Positions 6,701 through 27,043 of a DNA stretch of 64,000 nt are shown piece after piece. Position 1 is the first letter of the stretch. Each line of letters starts with the position of its first letter. Both the position numbers and the translations under genes were made by a program. This DNA is from a virus. The stretch covers positions 1 through 64,000 of the IMG/VR virus record IMGVR_UViG_3300014913_000009. The stretch is one strand, 5' to 3'. Under the pieces are notes generated by a model, which was not told the DNA's origin, ran no database searches, and saw only the letters and a list, made by a program, of their open reading frames with translations.

Positions 6701-7216
6701 TTAAAGTTCAGGTAAGACGGGCTCTTTGACCTTAGTCTTTGCTTTCGCTTTCGACTTCGTCGAAGATTTTGTCTTCGATTTAGACTTTGTCTCCAATTCT
6801 TCATTATGCCACGATTTGAGCAGTTCTTCTGCTTCTGCAACCGTGATGTGATTAAAATCGGTTAAATCTTCTGTCCCATCAATGGTTTCATCCAGCAACC
6901 TTACTTTGATGCTGTATGTGATAGCATTTATGCTATCAAGCCAATCTGAGAAACGTTCGTCTTTCTTGGCACCACCAATGATGCCATTCATTCGACGAAT
7001 ATCCAGGGTTGACCCAACAATAAATGTCGGTCCGCCTTGACCTCGTCGTTTGGAGACATGAAATGCTCCAAATAGTACTTTCTCGCCAGATTTTCTGGCA
7101 TTGGCAATTTTATTATTTGCCAATGCGTAACACGCCATCAGCAATTCGAATGACGACTCGCCAACTGCCATAGTCAATTTTTCCTGTGACTCTAATACTC
7201 TGTCCATAATGTTCAT
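6701..7216 (-). CDS. Hypothetical protein with Lys/Ser-rich tail
   Basis: 171-aa ORF with SD AAAGGA. Confidence 0.7.
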   Translation of the reverse strand: MNIMDRVLESQEKLTMAVGESSFELLMACYALANNKIANARKSGEKVLFGAFHVSKRRGQGGPTFIVGSTLDIRRMNGIIGGAKKDERFSDWLDSINAITYSIKVRLLDETIDGTEDLTDFNHITVAEAEELLKSWHNEELETKSKSKTKSSTKSKAKAKTKVKEPVLPEL

Positions 7217-7259
7217 AATTTTGTCCTTTCTTAAGACTTTTGAAACTTGAACAATCGAA

Positions 7260-7460
7260 CTATTCGATTGTTTCTTCTACCATTGTCTGACTGTCAGCCA
7301 TTTTGGCTTTTCTTTCAGATACTTTCTCTTTTGCAAGTTCTACTGCTTTCTCAGCATACTTGCTGCCCTTTTCATAGGCCCACAAGCCACCTTCGATGAC
7401 TAATAGTCCTGCAAGACAACTGACACCGACTTCGATGCCTTTTTTAATGACTCTCAACAT
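7260..7460 (-). CDS. Small membrane-anchored hypothetical protein
   Basis: ATG 7460 after AAAGGAG; one hydrophobic helix. Confidence 0.6.
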   Translation of the reverse strand: MLRVIKKGIEVGVSCLAGLLVIEGGLWAYEKGSKYAEKAVELAKEKVSERKAKMADSQTMVEETIE

Positions 7461-7572
7461 AGCGATACTCCTTTCTTTTTGTAATAATAAGTAATAATAT
7501 ATTTCGTAAAGAGAATTATATAAGTTATCTAATAACAATCTTCAATAATCCTCAATACTCTCCCTATTAATC

Positions 7573-7800
7573 TCATACAATCAAGGCCACTACTAAGAAT
7601 AATATTGAGAAACTGCCAATTAGACTGTTTCTCGAAATATTTCTCTTAATACTACCGAAGTTAAGTTCGGCCTCAATGAGAGTCTCTTCGTCCAAGTCTC
7701 TCTTTTTACGCTTGTGGTCATAATACCATAAACCACAAGATGCCAGCATTATTTCAATAACGAATGCCACAATCATCCACACTAATATTTCTGCAACCAT
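7573..7800 (-). CDS. Small two-TM hypothetical protein
   Basis: Two hydrophobic segments; SD AAAGGAAG. Confidence 0.65.
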   Translation of the reverse strand: MVAEILVWMIVAFVIEIMLASCGLWYYDHKRKKRDLDEETLIEAELNFGSIKRNISRNSLIGSFSILFLVVALIV

Positions 7801-7816
7801 AATATCTTCCTTTTCT

Positions 7817-7852
7817 TCATCAATTTTAAATGCGGATTGATGATAACCGCAT
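7817..7852 (-). promoter_or_regulatory. 5'-UTR H-type pseudoknot motif, copy A
   Basis: AUGCGG-UUA-UCAUCAAU-CCGCAU-UUAAA-AUUGAUGA directly before the SD. Confidence 0.7.
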
Positions 7853-7899
7853 ATAAAAAATTAACCCGAGTACAAATCGTACCCGGGTTAATTGAATTA

Positions 7900-8334
7900 T
7901 TATCTATCGCAATTCTCGCAATAGATATACACTTCTCCTCCGGCAATTGCCGGTTCCGATGTATCTAAGTACATCGGACCATGACACTTCGGACATATCC
8001 CGGAAGTGTCGGGTGACCTTTCTAATTCGGGGATTTCGTTTCTTTTGATTGTTCGAAGATACCACCCATCTTCCAATTTTTCGTCTCTTTGAACATCATG
8101 ACCAAATTTTCCGATCCAGTTTACTATTGTGTCTTCCGGATTATTGACTTTTGGTATAATACACCAGAAATTGTCCTCCTCTTCGAGGAAACCTCTTTTT
8201 ACAAACTTCACGAGGGCTTTCCCCTCGCCACCGGGAAGGTATGCGACAACAGCGTACCTCTCCCGAACTGTTTCGCCTTTTCCTCGAAATCCTCCGATTT
8301 CGAAGAACGAAATAGCTTCCAAGAAATTATTCAT
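7900..8334 (-). CDS. Hypothetical protein with C-terminal Zn ribbon
   Basis: CPKC...CENC. Confidence 0.7.
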   Translation of the reverse strand: MNNFLEAISFFEIGGFRGKGETVRERYAVVAYLPGGEGKALVKFVKRGFLEEEDNFWCIIPKVNNPEDTIVNWIGKFGHDVQRDEKLEDGWYLRTIKRNEIPELERSPDTSGICPKCHGPMYLDTSEPAIAGGEVYIYCENCDR

Positions 8335-8349
8335 AACATTCCCTTTTCT

Positions 8350-8383
8350 TCGTCAATTTTATTGCGGATTGACGATAACCGCA
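8350..8383 (-). promoter_or_regulatory. 5'-UTR H-type pseudoknot motif, copy B
   Basis: UGCGG-UUA-UCGUCAAU-CCGCA-AUAAA-AUUGACGA before the SD. Confidence 0.7.
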
Positions 8384-8391
8384 TATTAATA

Positions 8392-8462
8392 TTGGCAAAT
8401 CTCATCAGTACCGGAATGCCAATCCGGCAGACCGACGCCGATACCAGCGTCGGTTTCGATTT
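8392..8462 (-). ncRNA. Type II hammerhead ribozyme (HHR-1)
   Basis: AAAUC-GAAA-[stem III with GUAU loop]-GUC cleavage triplet-[stem I UGCCGGA/UCCGGUA, loop UUGGCAU]-CUGAUGA-GAUUU-GCCAA. Complete core plus a loop I / 3'-tail pseudoknot. Confidence 0.93.
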
Positions 8463-8739
8463 AAATGTATTCTAATACCCAATTTTCCGGGTTGTTTCCC
8501 GGAACTCTACCACCAAAATCAAGATAGTACATTCTATCTATCTTTTTGGAAGAGAGCCCAATTTTGGCGGACTCGTATCCGCCATAACTATCGCTCTCGA
8601 ATGGGTTTATTTCGTATGTCTCTTCATCGACATATCCCAACATGCCGAGAAAATCAGCAACGGTGTCGATAGTGAAGTCATCTGGTTCTTCCCGACTTTC
8701 TACTTCAACGCCGTGAGCGTTATAAATTAAAACTTCCAT
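8461..8739 (-). CDS. Small acidic hypothetical protein between two hammerheads
   Basis: 92-aa ORF with SD AAAGGAAA. Confidence 0.7.
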   Translation of the reverse strand: MEVLIYNAHGVEVESREEPDDFTIDTVADFLGMLGYVDEETYEINPFESDSYGGYESAKIGLSSKKIDRMYYLDFGGRVPGNNPENWVLEYI

Positions 8740-8754
8740 AATATTTCCTTTTCT

Positions 8755-8787
8755 TCGTCAATTTTATTGCGGATTGACGATAACCGC
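8755..8787 (-). promoter_or_regulatory. 5'-UTR H-type pseudoknot motif, copy C
   Basis: Core identical to copy B. Confidence 0.7.
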
Positions 8788-8794
8788 TTTGAAA

Positions 8795-8863
8795 TTGGCA
8801 TTCTCGTCAGTACCCGGGTGCCAGCCGGATAGACCGACGCCGATACCGGCGCCGGTTTAGAAT
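8795..8863 (-). ncRNA. Type II hammerhead ribozyme variant (HHR-2, G12U)
   Basis: Same fold as HHR-1 with compensated stems and CUGACGA, but UAAA replaces GAAA. Confidence 0.8.
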
Positions 8864-8865
8864 TT

Positions 8866-9201
8866 TTAAATATCGTGAATATTTTCTAAAATGCACTTCG
8901 CGCTTTCCGGCGAAGACACTTCGAATTGTTTGACGGCATAGCGTCGGAGACTCATGCCGAATTGTTTCCACATGTCTTCTGCGGAGAATTCTTCTCCGCG
9001 GGGCGGAAATTTCTCGAATTCTACTGCGATATACACGCAGCAGAGGGAAGCTAAGTGCAGCGGCAAATTACCAATACACAAATTCCCGGCGACATCTGCC
9101 GGGATAGCATTTCCCGTGATGATGTCAAAATCAATCCCGCTATAGCGGGATGTAATGGCTTTTACGGTCGCCGGATGGCGACTGATAATTAAATTTCTCA
9201 T
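8866..9201 (-). CDS. Csx16-like (VVA1548-family-like) protein
   Basis: LIISRHPAT...IGNLPLHLA..C resembles the Csx16 SRHxGA / GTLPxHLA motifs. Confidence 0.6.
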   Translation of the reverse strand: MRNLIISRHPATVKAITSRYSGIDFDIITGNAIPADVAGNLCIGNLPLHLASLCCVYIAVEFEKFPPRGEEFSAEDMWKQFGMSLRRYAVKQFEVSSPESAKCILENIHDI

Positions 9202-9203
9202 AA

Positions 9204-9659
9204 TTAAAATCCTTTCTTAAATTTGTATAAATACACATCTGATTTGCAGATGTTTTTAATTAAACTCATAATTTTATCGACTTCTCCGCCTCCAAGCCCA
9301 CAGCCTATCAGATATGGCATATGGAGAGTTTCTTCTCTCTCTTGGGCAAACTGGTCGACTTTTTCTAAACATACTGCTAAGTCTGCGTATGACACTCTCT
9401 GTCGATTTGTCCCTATGCCATCTTGTGCACACATATTGCACACATAGATCTCTGTGTCTACTTGAATTATTCGGATTTTTCCGAGTTCTTGTTTATTATC
9501 CCGAAAGACTTTTTCAGGAAAAGACCATTTTCGAGAAAGTGCTAACACAAATCCGGCACCCCATTTATTCACATTGTTCACAATATGGCATATGATGGCC
9601 GGTTTTTGAATTGGCGAAGTGACATCGCCTTTTATGATTTTGATCATTATTTTCTCCAT
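9204..9659 (-). CDS. Macro domain (ADP-ribose processing) protein
   Basis: IKGDVT, ICHIVN..NKWGAGF and MPYLIGCGLGGG motifs. Confidence 0.88.
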   Translation of the reverse strand: MEKIMIKIIKGDVTSPIQKPAIICHIVNNVNKWGAGFVLALSRKWSFPEKVFRDNKQELGKIRIIQVDTEIYVCNMCAQDGIGTNRQRVSYADLAVCLEKVDQFAQEREETLHMPYLIGCGLGGGEVDKIMSLIKNICKSDVYLYKFKKGF

Positions 9660-9716
9660 TTATTTTGCCAATAATCCCGAGAATAGAAATCGGGGATTAT
9701 TGACATTGACGATTGT

Positions 9717-9953
9717 TCAATCTGGATACAGAAGTTCTCTAACTTCCTCTACGATTCTTTCATATTCACGAGGAATTCTCTCGTTGCAATATGATTCCGT
9801 TGGCTCTCCATCAAGTGCGATCTTGACGGAGGTAATGAATACTCCGCTTTGTAGATGATTTGCAAAGCGGATTGTGATAGAGTTCGCTCCATCACATACT
9901 GTCATTTCTCTTATGGCGGAAGAAATATCTTCCTGTTTTAATCTTTTAAACAT
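9717..9953 (-). CDS. Hypothetical protein
   Basis: 78-aa ORF with SD AAGGAG. Confidence 0.65.
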   Translation of the reverse strand: MFKRLKQEDISSAIREMTVCDGANSITIRFANHLQSGVFITSVKIALDGEPTESYCNERIPREYERIVEEVRELLYPD

Positions 9954-9983
9954 AATAAACTCTCCTTGAAAAGTGTTGAAATT

Positions 9984-10427
9984 TTACTTAAACTTTAACT
10001 GACGTTTGAGTTTTCGTAAATTTAGATTTACGATGCAAGAAATTCCCTGTTTGGAAACTCCTAACAAATCCCCTATTCGTTGATGGGAATATTCTTTGCA
10101 ACCAAATAAACCAAATTTCATAATTAATATTGCCCTATCACGCATTTTCATTTGCGCTAATAATTGGCGAAATATTTTATTAAGATGGTTTACATATTCA
10201 TTCATAAATACTTGGGATTTTAAGTGTTTATAATATAATTCGGCTGTTAGAATATCGACTTTCTCATGTCGACACTCTACACATATGTCTTGCTTTTCAT
10301 ATCCTTGCATATGATTACAATCCCATTTTTTTATTTTTATCGGCGTATAATGTACACGTCGGTAGAAATCTGTAGTATGGTTAGATTGCCCGCATTGCGG
10401 GCAATCTATAAACTTGAATTTTGACAT
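9984..10427 (-). CDS. Zn-finger plus sigma-70 region-4-like HTH protein
   Basis: N-terminal CPQC...CVEC; C-terminal RDRAILIMKFGL...YSHQRIGDLLGVSKQGIS...LRKLK resembles sigma region 4. Confidence 0.75.
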   Translation of the reverse strand: MSKFKFIDCPQCGQSNHTTDFYRRVHYTPIKIKKWDCNHMQGYEKQDICVECRHEKVDILTAELYYKHLKSQVFMNEYVNHLNKIFRQLLAQMKMRDRAILIMKFGLFGCKEYSHQRIGDLLGVSKQGISCIVNLNLRKLKRQLKFK

Positions 10428-11686: not shown

Positions 11687-11962
11687 TTATGACTGATTAA
11701 AGAAGAATGCTGGAATATATGTAAATAAATACATATTATAATCTTTTTCTATAACAAACTTTGAAATGAGTTTGGTAGAAAGCCAAACATTCCCGTTTTT
11801 CGTAACAATTTTGCATGAATCATTTTCGACAAATATTTCATTTAAATGGAATATTGTCATTTTTACATCAGGAACAAGCAAGCAAGCCTCAACAACTTCA
11901 GGATCAGTAAAATCATTTGGCAATCCTTCGCCAAATTTAAGGTTAGTATAAAAGAATTTCAT
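11687..11962 (-). CDS. Hypothetical protein
   Basis: 91-aa ORF with SD GGAGG. Confidence 0.65.
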   Translation of the reverse strand: MKFFYTNLKFGEGLPNDFTDPEVVEACLLVPDVKMTIFHLNEIFVENDSCKIVTKNGNVWLSTKLISKFVIEKDYNMYLFTYIPAFFFNQS

Positions 11963-14115: not shown

Positions 14116-14508
14116 TTATTCTACGGTTTCTGGAGTTTCCTCTGGCTTTTTGCCGAAGAGGTGACTCCAGATCGACAGGATCTTTCCGAAGACCCAATCG
14201 TGGACTCGCTTCTCCGCTTTGGGAGAAACGACGGAGGCTATCAAAATGCATAGTCCTCCAACACACGCTAATCCCGCGATTAGCGAGAGGTTCTTGAACA
14301 GATAGTACGCCAGAAGAACTGGCATGACCACAACAAGTAAAAATCCCACTGCGGGGGATTTCTCACATAATGTGTCAATCTTCTTTCGGGGATTAACAAA
14401 TCCCGCGAAATGACTGACAAACGAGGACTCTAATCCCCGTTTTTTTGCTTTGCCGAGGATTTCGGTGATCTTCTTTCGGGGATTAACAAAATTTTCTGTG
14501 TGTTTCAT
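14116..14508 (-). CDS. Membrane hypothetical protein with duplicated FVNPRKKI motif
   Basis: Probable start ATG 14508; two TM segments; internal 23-bp direct repeat. Confidence 0.55.
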   Translation of the reverse strand: MKHTENFVNPRKKITEILGKAKKRGLESSFVSHFAGFVNPRKKIDTLCEKSPAVGFLLVVVMPVLLAYYLFKNLSLIAGLACVGGLCILIASVVSPKAEKRVHDWVFGKILSIWSHLFGKKPEETPETVE

Positions 14509-14579
14509 ATTTTTCTTCTTTCTGTTTGCAATTTTAGATGAGATTGCAATTAACTCATTGATGATACTCAAAATACTCA

Positions 14580-17508: not shown

Positions 17509-18312
17509 TTACGCTCCATTCTCAACAAGCAGTTTGACGACTGCTAAATGTCCGTTCCTCCTCGCCCAACGCAACGAGGAACCGTGATTTTCATTCGTAT
17601 TAGCCCCTCCTTTTATTAGTAGTTTCGCAATTTCTGCGTATCCATTTCTCGCAGAAAGATACAATGCACGCCCTTTAAACGCGTTAACATCTGCACCGCT
17701 CTCAAGGAGCAGTTTTACAACTTCAGGGTAATTACCAATCACTGCCCAGCGCAGTGGATCTCCGTCTATAACATCCGCATCCACTCCCGCCTCAAGGAGC
17801 AACCTCACGATTGCAGTGTGTCCGTTTTCAGCGGACGAACACAATGCCCAATCATAATGGGCGTTTATACCCATCTCTATCAGCAATTTCACAATTGCAG
17901 TATGCCCGTATACAGCGGATAAATGTAATATGGAGTCTATATCCACCCCCATCCCTATCAGCAATTTCACAATTGCAGTATGCCCGTTTTTCGCCGACAA
18001 ATGCAACACATGATTATTGTGGGCGTGAACATTCGCGCCATTCTTGAGCAGCAGTTTTACAACCGCTATATTCCCGTGTTCCGCTGCATCTCGCAACGCC
18101 CAATCGTCTCTGACATGAACGTTTGCACCTGCATCAAGACAAGCCTGGGTTATATCGACCCGCCGTGCCATTAGCCAACCCAGCCATCCGTTATTGTCGA
18201 GTTTTTCGAGCAGTTCTGGTACGGTACACCCGTCCGGGAAATGCTTGTCGAACCAGTCAATGCCAGATTCACAGGCTTTGAGTTCTATTAATAAGTCAAT
18301 TGTGATTTTCAT
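17509..18312 (-). CDS. Ankyrin-repeat protein
   Basis: About six or seven canonical repeats (ALxxAAxxGHxxIVKLLLxxGA). Confidence 0.93.
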   Translation of the reverse strand: MKITIDLLIELKACESGIDWFDKHFPDGCTVPELLEKLDNNGWLGWLMARRVDITQACLDAGANVHVRDDWALRDAAEHGNIAVVKLLLKNGANVHAHNNHVLHLSAKNGHTAIVKLLIGMGVDIDSILHLSAVYGHTAIVKLLIEMGINAHYDWALCSSAENGHTAIVRLLLEAGVDADVIDGDPLRWAVIGNYPEVVKLLLESGADVNAFKGRALYLSARNGYAEIAKLLIKGGANTNENHGSSLRWARRNGHLAVVKLLVENGA

Positions 18313-18328
18313 ATTTTTTTTCTTTCTT

Positions 18329-18365
18329 CCATCAATTTTAAAACGGATTGATGGTTAACCGTTTT
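18329..18365 (-). promoter_or_regulatory. 5'-UTR H-type pseudoknot motif, copy D
   Basis: AAAACGG-UUAA-CCAUCAAU-CCGUUUU-AAA-AUUGAUGG; compensatory changes in both stems. Confidence 0.7.
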
Positions 18366-18411
18366 TCCTGTTTGGAAATAAAAAACCTTGACTACAATTG
18401 TAGTCAAGGTT

Positions 18412-22109: not shown

Positions 22110-22450
22110 TTAAAAAGCTGGTTCCCACCAGGCCTATTTGTTAATAGACTTGTATCTCATGGTTGGGATGGACACTCCCTTAAAATACCAGTAGATACCA
22201 TTGGGTGTAGTTACACTCATCACTCTATGCTCAGTTAACCCCATAGAGTAAGGTATTTAGTTTTTACAGCATTGCCCTTAGGTTACTGCACCAGGTCATT
22301 CTTGTAGGGCTATGTTTCCTGAGATTCGCCCGATCAACTATTTTAAGAGGATTGATCTTCCTCCGCAGGTAATTCTTTGTTTACAATAAGCCCCCACACC
22401 ACGTCAAGGTGATTACCAATCGTGGGAGTAGACCCCATAAGGGGTCCAAC
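22110..22450 (-). ncRNA. Candidate structured leader/ncRNA containing pseudoknot copy E (22332-22364)
   Basis: ORF-free with many hairpins; GGAGG-AA-GAUCAAU-CCUCU-UAAAAUA-GUUGAUC. Confidence 0.5.
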
Positions 22451-26969: not shown

Positions 26970-27043
26970 TGCAAGATAGAGTAGAGGTCACTCGACGGTC
27001 TCATAAGCCGTATACCCTGGTTCGATTCCAGGTCTTGCAACCA
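26970..27043 (+). tRNA. tRNA-Met(CAT), initiator-like
   Basis: Full cloverleaf: TGCAAGA/TCTTGCA acceptor, CTCATAA anticodon loop, TTCGATT T-loop, encoded CCA. Confidence 0.93.

Follow-up and report, generated by a model that had tools for sequence, protein, structure and literature searches.

A type II hammerhead fused to a pseudoknot leader between phage genes, with one of the two copies probably disabled

What do two copies of a hammerhead-bearing leader do on either side of a small phage gene? The locus that raises this question lies in the IMG/VR virus record IMGVR_UViG_3300014913_000009 (89,970 bp; CheckV completeness estimate, 47%), the first 64 kb of which form the stretch analysed here (hereafter the window); all locus coordinates are given for the minus strand, on which genes span from ~100 to ~24,400 of the window in the list of open reading frames (ORFs). 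Gene X, the ORF at 8461-8739, is flanked by two hammerhead elements (HHR-A upstream and HHR-B downstream), each followed by a pseudoknot (PK1 and PK2) and a ribosome-binding site (RBS). The motifs are present at both sites, their helices covary, they are conserved in a relative, and the general layout recurs in other phages. The locus holds a hammerhead fused to a lineage-specific pseudoknot leader, with one hammerhead copy that appears to be naturally disabled, and the reading favoured here, with a little more confidence than doubt, is that the ~130-nucleotide (nt) unit acts as an intergenic 'cut-and-restart' cassette in a minus-strand phage early operon, made of a hammerhead and a separable pseudoknot leader, with HHR-B as the only complete copy of the ribozyme. 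The elements of the two modules are, in minus-strand order:

8793-8864, minus strand: HHR-A, hammerhead-like element of type II topology, core CUGACGA, U at 8859 in place of G12 (Rfam RF02276, 32.2 bits, below gathering)
8755-8787, minus strand: PK1, pseudoknot with stem S1 of 4 bp (GCGG/CCGC), stem S2 of 7 bp (UCGUCAA/UUGACGA) and an A-rich linker (model R1, 69.7 bits)
8737-8750, minus strand: Shine-Dalgarno AAGGA (8750-8746) and ATG (8739-8737) of gene X (ORF list and direct reading)
8461-8739, minus strand: gene X, 92 amino acids (aa), acidic (pI 4.05), no known family (ORF list)
8390-8463, minus strand: HHR-B, complete type II hammerhead with CUGAUGA, GAAA, A15.1-U16.1 and C17 (Rfam RF02276, 37.4 bits)
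8350-8382, minus strand: PK2, same pseudoknot as PK1 (repeat family D5, 96%; model R1, 64.5 bits)
8332-8345, minus strand: Shine-Dalgarno AAGGG and ATG (8334-8332) of a 144-aa gene (ORF list and direct reading)

A first-pass annotation, made from the letters of the window, had described a duplicated module of hammerhead, pseudoknot and Shine-Dalgarno sequence around ORF 8461-8739, and this description is borne out by Rfam matches, repeats and covariation. When the 64-kb window was searched against 4227 families, HHR-B (8461-8390) matched RF02276 (Hammerhead_II; gathering score, 37 bits) with E = 5.6e-4; HHR-A (8863-8793) was found with E = 1.6e-4 in a search of 801 nt and 4.3e-6 when the 89,970-bp record was searched with RF02276 alone, the two elements being the sole matches there. 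In a repeat search, the hammerhead part recurs over 63 nt at 79% identity, 402 nt apart, and the pseudoknot/RBS part over 51 nt at 96% identity (family D5), with a third copy at 7800-7850. Both elements have the type II order, (G/U)AAA, stem III hairpin, GUC, stem I hairpin and CUGAYGA, with stem II open, and both carry the core C3-U4-G5-A6-N7-G8-A9 (CUGAUGA in HHR-B and CUGACGA in HHR-A; core definition from PMC3088659) as well as the A15.1-U16.1 pair and an H17, here the C17 within GUC. Stem I has 7 bp and stem III 10 bp in both, and stem II has 4 bp in HHR-A and 5-6 bp in HHR-B, where the stop codon of gene X (8463-8461) forms part of the helix, as the earlier remark on an overlap between hammerhead and stop codon had it. 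The GUC triplets at 8432-8430 and 8834-8832 (direct reading) put the predicted cuts at 8430/8429 in HHR-B and, nominally, at 8832/8831 in HHR-A, which confirms the positions first proposed and the interval of 402 nt between them.

The minimum-energy fold predicted by ViennaRNA is the canonical three-way junction for HHR-B (-29.5 kcal/mol; z, -3.51) and for HHR-A (-28.7 kcal/mol; z, -2.43), and also for the first of two hammerheads on a metagenome contig (L015, described below) that carries a close homologue of gene X. In an alignment of the two window and two L015 hammerheads, 96.1% of 76 cells are paired compared with at most 45.2% when the partners are slid, double-sided changes occur in 5 of the 19 pairs, and the pair at columns 14-38 is AU in all four sequences. 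All four copies also share a pseudoknot between loop I and the 3' tail (UGGCA with UGCCA, 5-6 bp, one G-U), which was read by eye and not counted by the tool because the alignment columns are shifted.

Where the family reads GAAA, and HHR-B with it, HHR-A reads UAAA and so has U12, a plus-strand A at 8859, in the place of G12. Position 12 is the hammerhead general base (PMC6155905), the substitution G12A alone slows the full-length hammerhead ~10^5-10^6-fold (PMC2553840), and Perreault et al. excluded any core mutation when curating the family (PMC3088659). A structure-based scan that allowed any base at position 12 was run on the IMG/VR loci (see below), L015 and the window, and returned G12 at 131 of 131 IMG/VR sites (119 loci, among the matches listed) and at both L015 sites, HHR-A being the only U12; a third match in the window is an alternative register of HHR-B. 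Every core position is said to have been covered by the classic mutagenesis of Ruffner et al. in 1990. HHR-A is classed as hammerhead-derived, and not as a consensus member, because G12 is absent; it probably cuts very slowly or not at all, which would leave HHR-B as the only catalytically complete copy in this phage. The conditional first-pass scenario, in which cutting at both sites would release a ~402-nt RNA that could circularise, is thus unlikely to apply here: with HHR-A lacking G12, neither the free RNA nor a circle made from it would be expected in this phage. Judged by its sequence, U12 is a derived state, since the hammerhead upstream of gene X in L015 looks live.

The second component of the unit is a 33-nt H-type pseudoknot, laid out as a 4-bp S1, a short loop, the 5' strand of S2 (5-7 bp), 1 nt, the 3' strand of S1, an A-rich linker and the 3' strand of S2. 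A covariance model built from eight pseudoknot copies (R1) finds six copies in the record at E <= 1.3e-6, along with three in the 1.2-kb L015 and a marginal seventh match in the record at 11732-11787 (minus strand; 17 bits, E = 0.095). Besides PK1 and PK2, the copies and the hairpin that precedes one of them are:

7859-7893, minus strand: terminator-like hairpin (16 pairs) followed by a U run, in the hammerhead's place before PK3
7817-7850, minus strand: PK3, with a compensatory change in S2 (UCAUCAA/UUGAUGA) and no preceding hammerhead (model R1, 69.3 bits)
14506-14558, minus strand: PK6, outside the seed, S1 UGAG/CUCA, S2 UUGCAA/UUGCAA (model R1, 41.4 bits, E = 3e-9)
18310-18363, minus strand: PK4 and leader, S1 ACGG/CCGU, S2 CCAUCAA/UUGAUGG, preceded by a hairpin and not a hammerhead (model R1, 64.4 bits)
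22311-22367, minus strand: PK5, divergent, S1 GAGG/CCUC, S2 GAUCAA/UUGAUC (model R1, 32.8 bits)

Across the nine copies of the record and L015, 90.8% of 87 cells are paired compared with at most 53.8% when slid, double-sided changes occur in 7 of 10 pairs, and none of 500 shuffles matches the observed score; the alignment was fitted to S2, and the counts for S1 are lowered because two copies are shifted there by one or two columns. In PK6 the letters of both helices differ from those of the other copies with the pairing retained. The pseudoknot ends 15-18 nt ahead of an ATG in eight of the nine copies, with an A-rich AAGGA-type stretch between; PK1 ends 15 nt ahead of the ATG of gene X, PK3 leads into a Shine-Dalgarno stretch and a 75-aa gene whose ATG is at 7800-7798, and PK5 has no ATG at the usual distance. 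The hammerhead is absent from four of the six copies in this genome. The pseudoknot and its RBS are a separate leader unit, and of the single ~120-nt module first described the duplication stands while its unity does not.

No minus-strand match to PK1 or PK2 was found in Rfam 15 within 8200-9000 at E <= 10, on which ground a preQ1-type or other known riboswitch was dropped as a candidate, and a gathering-level Rfam scan of the 64-kb window returned only a tRNA and HHR-B. The R1 pseudoknot occurs in none of the 119 hammerhead-bearing IMG/VR loci among the matches listed, an exact 36-nt degenerate pattern of it had no match in IMG/VR, and a looser pattern matched ten IMG/VR loci, none of which matches R1 at E <= 0.1. 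Seven of these ten (L137 and L139-L144, 49-99 kb) are near-identical and hold, at a gene junction, a short piece with a weak resemblance to the pseudoknot tail and Shine-Dalgarno sequence. Among the titles listed in literature searches, the only ones made on this point, none reports a pseudoknot between a phage hammerhead and a Shine-Dalgarno sequence, and Figures S1-S7 of Perreault et al. and Table S2 of Olzog et al. may hold comparable leaders or inactive core variants. The pseudoknot between ribozyme and RBS is the new element here.

Two further features of the leader concern its surroundings and its relation to the ribozyme. PK3 and PK4 each stand behind a strong hairpin and a U run (7859-7893 and 18384-18411, minus strand); there is too little promoter space before the pseudoknot, for which reason the genes after PK3 and PK4 would be read through the hairpin, or the hairpin would be a stability element. 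A 9-mer is common to the hairpin at 7893-7859 and stem I of HHR-A, and this hairpin may be a hammerhead remnant. In three modules, the hammerhead core (UGAYGA) could pair with the 5' strand of S2 (UCGUCA); in the window the partners are 8774-8780 with 8803-8809 and 8369-8375 with 8402-8408 (minus strand), and the L015 positions concerned are 740-775. In the first L015 module the 3' strand of S1 takes the core-complementary part. ViennaRNA predicts this alternative helix between core and S2 for the HHR-A module. The complementarity could form a switch between the ribozyme and leader folds, or is possibly due to chance, whose likelihood per module is put, as a rough estimate, between a few percent and tens of percent, and there are only two independent cases.

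A search of 5.8 billion proteins found five metagenome homologues of gene X (67-93% identity); Pfam, PHROG, NCBIfam and PDB gave no match to it, and Atlas no usable one. The contigs of two homologues were examined. One of these, L015 (1,218 nt, from a JGI metagenome), reads in order: A/T-rich region, pseudoknot, gene X paralogue, hammerhead, pseudoknot, gene X, hammerhead, pseudoknot and ATG, its gene X being 93% identical to that of the window and the tandem paralogue 64% identical to that copy. Both L015 hammerheads have a full core with G12; the second scores 33.3 bits in Rfam and has its stem III rebuilt by four double changes, and the first had no Rfam report at E <= 0.1. The stems form a mosaic between the two genomes, with stem I of HHR-B identical to that of the first L015 hammerhead and stem I of HHR-A resembling that of the second, a pattern that would be expected of recombination between repeated leaders, as read from two genomes only. 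The gene ahead of the module also differs, being a gene X paralogue in L015 and a Cas_VVA1548-like gene (described below) in the window. The comparison of gene content in relatives that had been suggested as a check thus lends some support to cassette-like turnover, and the proposed gene shuffling by the repeats gains weak support from these two genomes. Positions 1-340 of L015 are very A/T-rich, with three tandem TTTTTTCAC-type repeats and a long T run at the contig end, and could represent either a promoter region or the end of the assembly.

On the second contig, L016 (20,279 nt examined of a 46-kb contig), gene X is 69% identical and lies between ankyrin-like ORFs. Further searches for relatives gave no match for 7000-10000 in GenBank phages (blastn), no IMG/VR relative with gene X, the 144-aa gene, an RNA polymerase beta'-like gene or the gene X alignment, and no relative with that alignment in 185,579 species genomes. 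A 17-mer from stem III was found at 12 IMG/VR loci, none with an Rfam hammerhead, and these were taken as chance matches. A look-up of sequencing runs that contain the stretch returned no RNA run and only two sediment-metagenome DNA runs; metagenome cover was drawn from the contigs of these two, which fragment at the repeats. The summed contig depth over HHR-B (8388-8461) is 105.7 in a sediment run against a baseline of 13.2 (~8-fold), and several alternative junctions are seen at the repeated leaders; together these indicate that the module is present there in several variants or copies. One metagenome joint that skips 8765-8863 has a depth of 2.8 and a 20-letter side, and was not relied on.

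To gauge how common the layout is in phages, IMG/VR was scanned with a pattern of our own for type II hammerheads that share the stem III base, which returned at least 133 sites in at least 119 loci, 131 of them passing a structure filter; the counts that follow are among the matches listed. At 112 distinct sites, the stop of an ORF of at least 40 codons lies no more than 25 nt upstream of G12 in 95 (2-3 nt in 72), an ORF start follows within 150 nt in 111 (median, 14 nt; quartiles, 9 and 28), and the contiguous stem II is 2-3 bp in 100. Two or three hammerheads on one strand, 385-2054 nt apart, are present in 12 of the 119 loci. Hammerheads that bracket a gene are ordinary for phages and have been in print since 2011, as seen from these layout counts together with Perreault et al. 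2011 and Olzog et al. 2021. The first-pass idea of a self-processing expression cassette fits this pattern, the module standing between genes on the coding strand. The distance from the end of CUGAYGAG to the ATG is 63 nt in the HHR-A module and 66 nt in the HHR-B module and exceeds 56 nt at only 3 of 111 IMG/VR sites; in both modules the pseudoknot fills this long spacer.

The genes on either side complete the locus, which reads, from 9201 to 7798 on the minus strand, Cas_VVA1548 gene, HHR-A, PK1, gene X, HHR-B, PK2, 144-aa gene, hairpin, PK3 and 75-aa ORF:

8866-9201, minus strand: Cas_VVA1548 (Csx16-type) family gene, 111 aa (Pfam PF09652, E = 6e-7, 30 bits against a cut-off of 25)
7900-8334, minus strand: 144-aa gene with C-terminal CxxC..CxxC motifs, no known family (ORF list)

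The stop codon of the Cas_VVA1548-family gene (8868-8866) lies 2 nt ahead of stem II of HHR-A. This gene adjoins a phrog_335 'phosphatase'/macro-like protein (E = 2e-21; the two at 8866-9659 of the window, minus strand), and the pair could be anti-defence genes; the very acidic gene X (pI 4.05) is their neighbour. A tRNA gene is found at 26970-27040 (plus strand; Rfam, 60.9 bits) with the anticodon loop CUCAUAA (anticodon CAU).

From this anatomy we infer that the RNA is cleaved in vivo, that the resulting ends are protected and that the pseudoknot has a role, along the following lines; the protected 5' ends of the first-pass annotation are plausible on this basis. Each hammerhead starts at or just past the stop codon of the upstream gene, and HHR-B, with its intact core, would split the polycistronic RNA at 8430/8429. 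The message upstream of the cut would have the 10-bp hairpin of stem III and a 2',3'-cyclic phosphate at its 3' end, and the message downstream would open with a 5'-OH on U1.1, whose pair with A2.1 forms the foot of the 7-bp stem I; it is the type II order of parts that would leave a hairpin at both new ends. Because the short stem II is the only helix joining them, the products would separate and the cut would be effectively one-way. 5'-end-dependent RNase E and RNase J, like 3' exonucleases and poly(A) polymerase, are impeded by terminal hairpins, a 5'-OH and 3' ends that lack a free OH. Downstream of the cut, the pseudoknot would give a constant A-rich RBS at a fixed distance whatever the upstream sequence, as a context-independent translation leader that may be either an insulator freeing the RBS or an operator for a factor; a protein-binding operator role, by analogy with the pseudoknot of T4 gene 32, is equally open. 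The expected RNAs would be one with the Cas_VVA1548-like gene and gene X, which U12 in HHR-A most likely leaves together, and a second starting at the 144-aa gene.

Several observations weigh against the cut-and-restart reading. HHR-B clears the Rfam gathering score by only 0.4 bits, and the IMG/VR proportions hold for a pattern-selected subset only. The 20,279 nt of L016 contain no hammerhead and only a weak pseudoknot match (20.6 bits), and because gene X is present there all the same, the module appears dispensable for it. The predicted accessibility of Shine-Dalgarno and AUG, cut compared with uncut, is 0.51 vs 0.53, 0.36 vs 0.52, 0.46 vs 0.48 and 0.87 vs 0.71, and so shows no consistent gain, these being mean unpaired probabilities in a nested-structure model in which pseudoknots are not representable. 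As for the disabled copy, the N3 pKa of uridine is close to that of guanine N1 and residual HHR-A activity is possible, and the published rate figure concerns A at position 12 while HHR-A carries U. U12 also rests on one assembled contig, with metagenome contigs scarcely covering 8832-8905 (depth, 1.29) and those aligned to the window showing nothing at 8859; it may be an assembly error or a minority variant.

If HHR-A did retain activity, both hammerheads might cut, HHR-A slowly or with another metal ion, and yield a linear 402-nt gene X mRNA with a hairpin at each end. We hold this to be unlikely in the window, though HHR-A keeps its helices and tertiary pseudoknot through compensatory changes, which hints at continued selection on the fold, and core variants can stay active, such as A6C of phage Bcep176 in Mn2+ (PMC7151607). 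Set against these points are the general-base role of position 12, the rate cost of G12A, the rejection of any core mutation in the curation by Perreault et al., and the finding of a non-G base at position 12 in none of the 133 other scanned sites among the matches listed. In L015, where both flanking hammerheads have G12, single-gene release is plausible. A further step, in which the excised gene X RNA would be joined by an RtcB-type ligase or the reverse hammerhead reaction into a circular mRNA resembling viroid-like or retrozyme RNAs, is very improbable. Topology is what speaks for it, the ends of the excised piece being two hammerhead halves that could reassemble, with a chimeric stem II of three contiguous pairs in L015 (direct reading). 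In the window this chimeric stem has two pairs and then a mismatch (direct reading), the improbable HHR-A cut would be required as well, and the short stem II found throughout the class among the IMG/VR matches listed favours product release; Perreault et al. could, by their own account, detect no circular or spliced products (PMC3088659). With G12 absent from HHR-A and this mismatch in stem II, the locus does not have the make-up of a viroid-like or retrozyme element.

The opposite possibility, that neither element is a ribozyme in vivo and that both are structured leaders with decaying hammerheads (stability hairpins, attenuators, protein sites or selfish repeats), draws on the copy that already lacks G12, the plain hairpin and U run in the hammerhead position before PK3 and PK4, the 9-mer that one of these hairpins shares with stem I of HHR-A, and the lack of hammerheads in the examined part of L016. 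It too seems unlikely, given that HHR-B and both L015 hammerheads keep all core nucleotides while their stems change by compensation, which is a signature of selection for catalysis and not only for hairpins, and that cleavage of comparable phage hammerheads is documented both in vitro and in vivo (PMC3088659, PMC8782182). Alternatively, the ribozyme would cut for differential decay and not for protection, the uncoupled cistrons differing in half-life or translation, including down-regulation of one side. This reading, of low probability in our estimate, has the same anatomy as the cut-and-restart cassette, and nothing in the sequence appears to separate the two; Perreault et al. raise the case of a hammerhead that would adjust how stable a key transcript of a haloarchaeal virus is (PMC3088659), and the in vivo stability of ribozyme fragments has been called understudied (PMC8782182). 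The type II topology, which would cap both new ends with hairpins, fits stabilisation better, and RiboJ-type processing raises expression (PMC6206723).

The cut-and-restart reading can be extended into a bolder form, which is doubtful: the unit of hammerhead, pseudoknot and RBS would be a natural portable 'RiboJ-like' cassette that plugs small accessory (possibly anti-defence) genes into the early operon; an early-gene regulon would share the pseudoknot as a translational operator or enhancer of a kind so far undescribed; the exchange of G12 and U12 would act in evolution as a switch of one nucleotide, by which neighbour genes are coupled or uncoupled on one mRNA; and recombination between leaders would duplicate or exchange genes, as the tandem paralogues of L015 suggest. 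Whatever its role, the locus offers a natural experiment, with gene X flanked by a live and a probably dead ribozyme here and by two live-looking ones in L015, and with a ribozyme joined to a second covarying RNA element that also stands alone; the effect of the cut should therefore be separable from that of the leader. If the composite works like RiboJ, phages would have reached the same design and would supply a natural, pseudoknot-based part for that toolbox. Apart from that, the locus is one more case of a layout known since 2011.

That layout is the one described by Perreault et al. (2011), in which clustered hammerheads of phages and prophages flank genes singly or in short blocks, with cleavage demonstrated in vitro for three arrangements and in E. 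coli for one (PMC3088659). The same authors proposed that phage transcripts are processed into single-gene mRNAs with possible circles, and this part of the first-pass interpretation is therefore not a new idea; what the thousands of phage hammerheads do biologically is still described as an open question (PMC6155905). Like those clusters, which comprise same-strand hammerheads within a few hundred to a few thousand nt around varied small phage genes, the window has two hammerheads on the coding strand in consecutive gaps, 402 nt apart around ORF 8461-8739, and shares their type II topology with a pseudoknot between loop I and the 3' tail. Unlike them, it has one copy with a general-base substitution and so not every member appears catalytically competent, although Perreault et al. 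allow some copies to be non-functional; it also differs in the covarying 33-nt H-type pseudoknot and in the distance of 63-66 nt from core to ATG, against the IMG/VR median of 14 nt among the matches listed. In Desulfovibrio vulgaris, Olzog et al. (2021) describe three type II hammerheads that cleave in vivo, with capture of the 2',3'-cyclic-phosphate and 5'-OH ends (PMC8782182). Two of these (loc 2 and loc 3) lie ~313 nt apart near phage-like genes, an arrangement like the one here, and were shown to cleave in vivo, whereas the window hammerheads are known from sequence.

Outside this family the likenesses are in design. RiboJ consists of the sTRSV hammerhead and a 23-nt hairpin before the RBS and raises both transcript and protein (Clifton et al. 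2018, PMC6206723); its cleavage standardises the 5' end, and the structure that remains is believed to make the mRNA more stable and the RBS accessible. The order of parts, hammerhead, structured spacer and RBS, is the same, but RiboJ is synthetic, type III, post-promoter and built with a hairpin, while the unit here is natural, intercistronic and has a pseudoknot as spacer; the likeness would be a functional analogy and implies no family relationship. The T4-type gene 32 leader has an H-type pseudoknot in a phage mRNA leader followed, as here, by an unstructured A/U-rich stretch to the RBS (PMC3014915). That pseudoknot binds gp32 and is found 67 nt ahead of a single autoregulated gene, in contrast to the present one, which ends 15-18 nt from the ATG and is placed in front of at least five different genes, the two being compared by description and not by sequence. 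In RNA viruses, self-cleaving ribozymes in 5' untranslated regions enable translation initiation (Lopez-Galiano et al. 2026, PMC13725137), likewise with the ribozyme directly upstream of a viral ORF and with tandem pairs that enclose 186-399 nt; those systems belong to eukaryotic RNA viruses and are cap-independent and type I, whereas the module described here belongs to a DNA phage with Shine-Dalgarno-led initiation.

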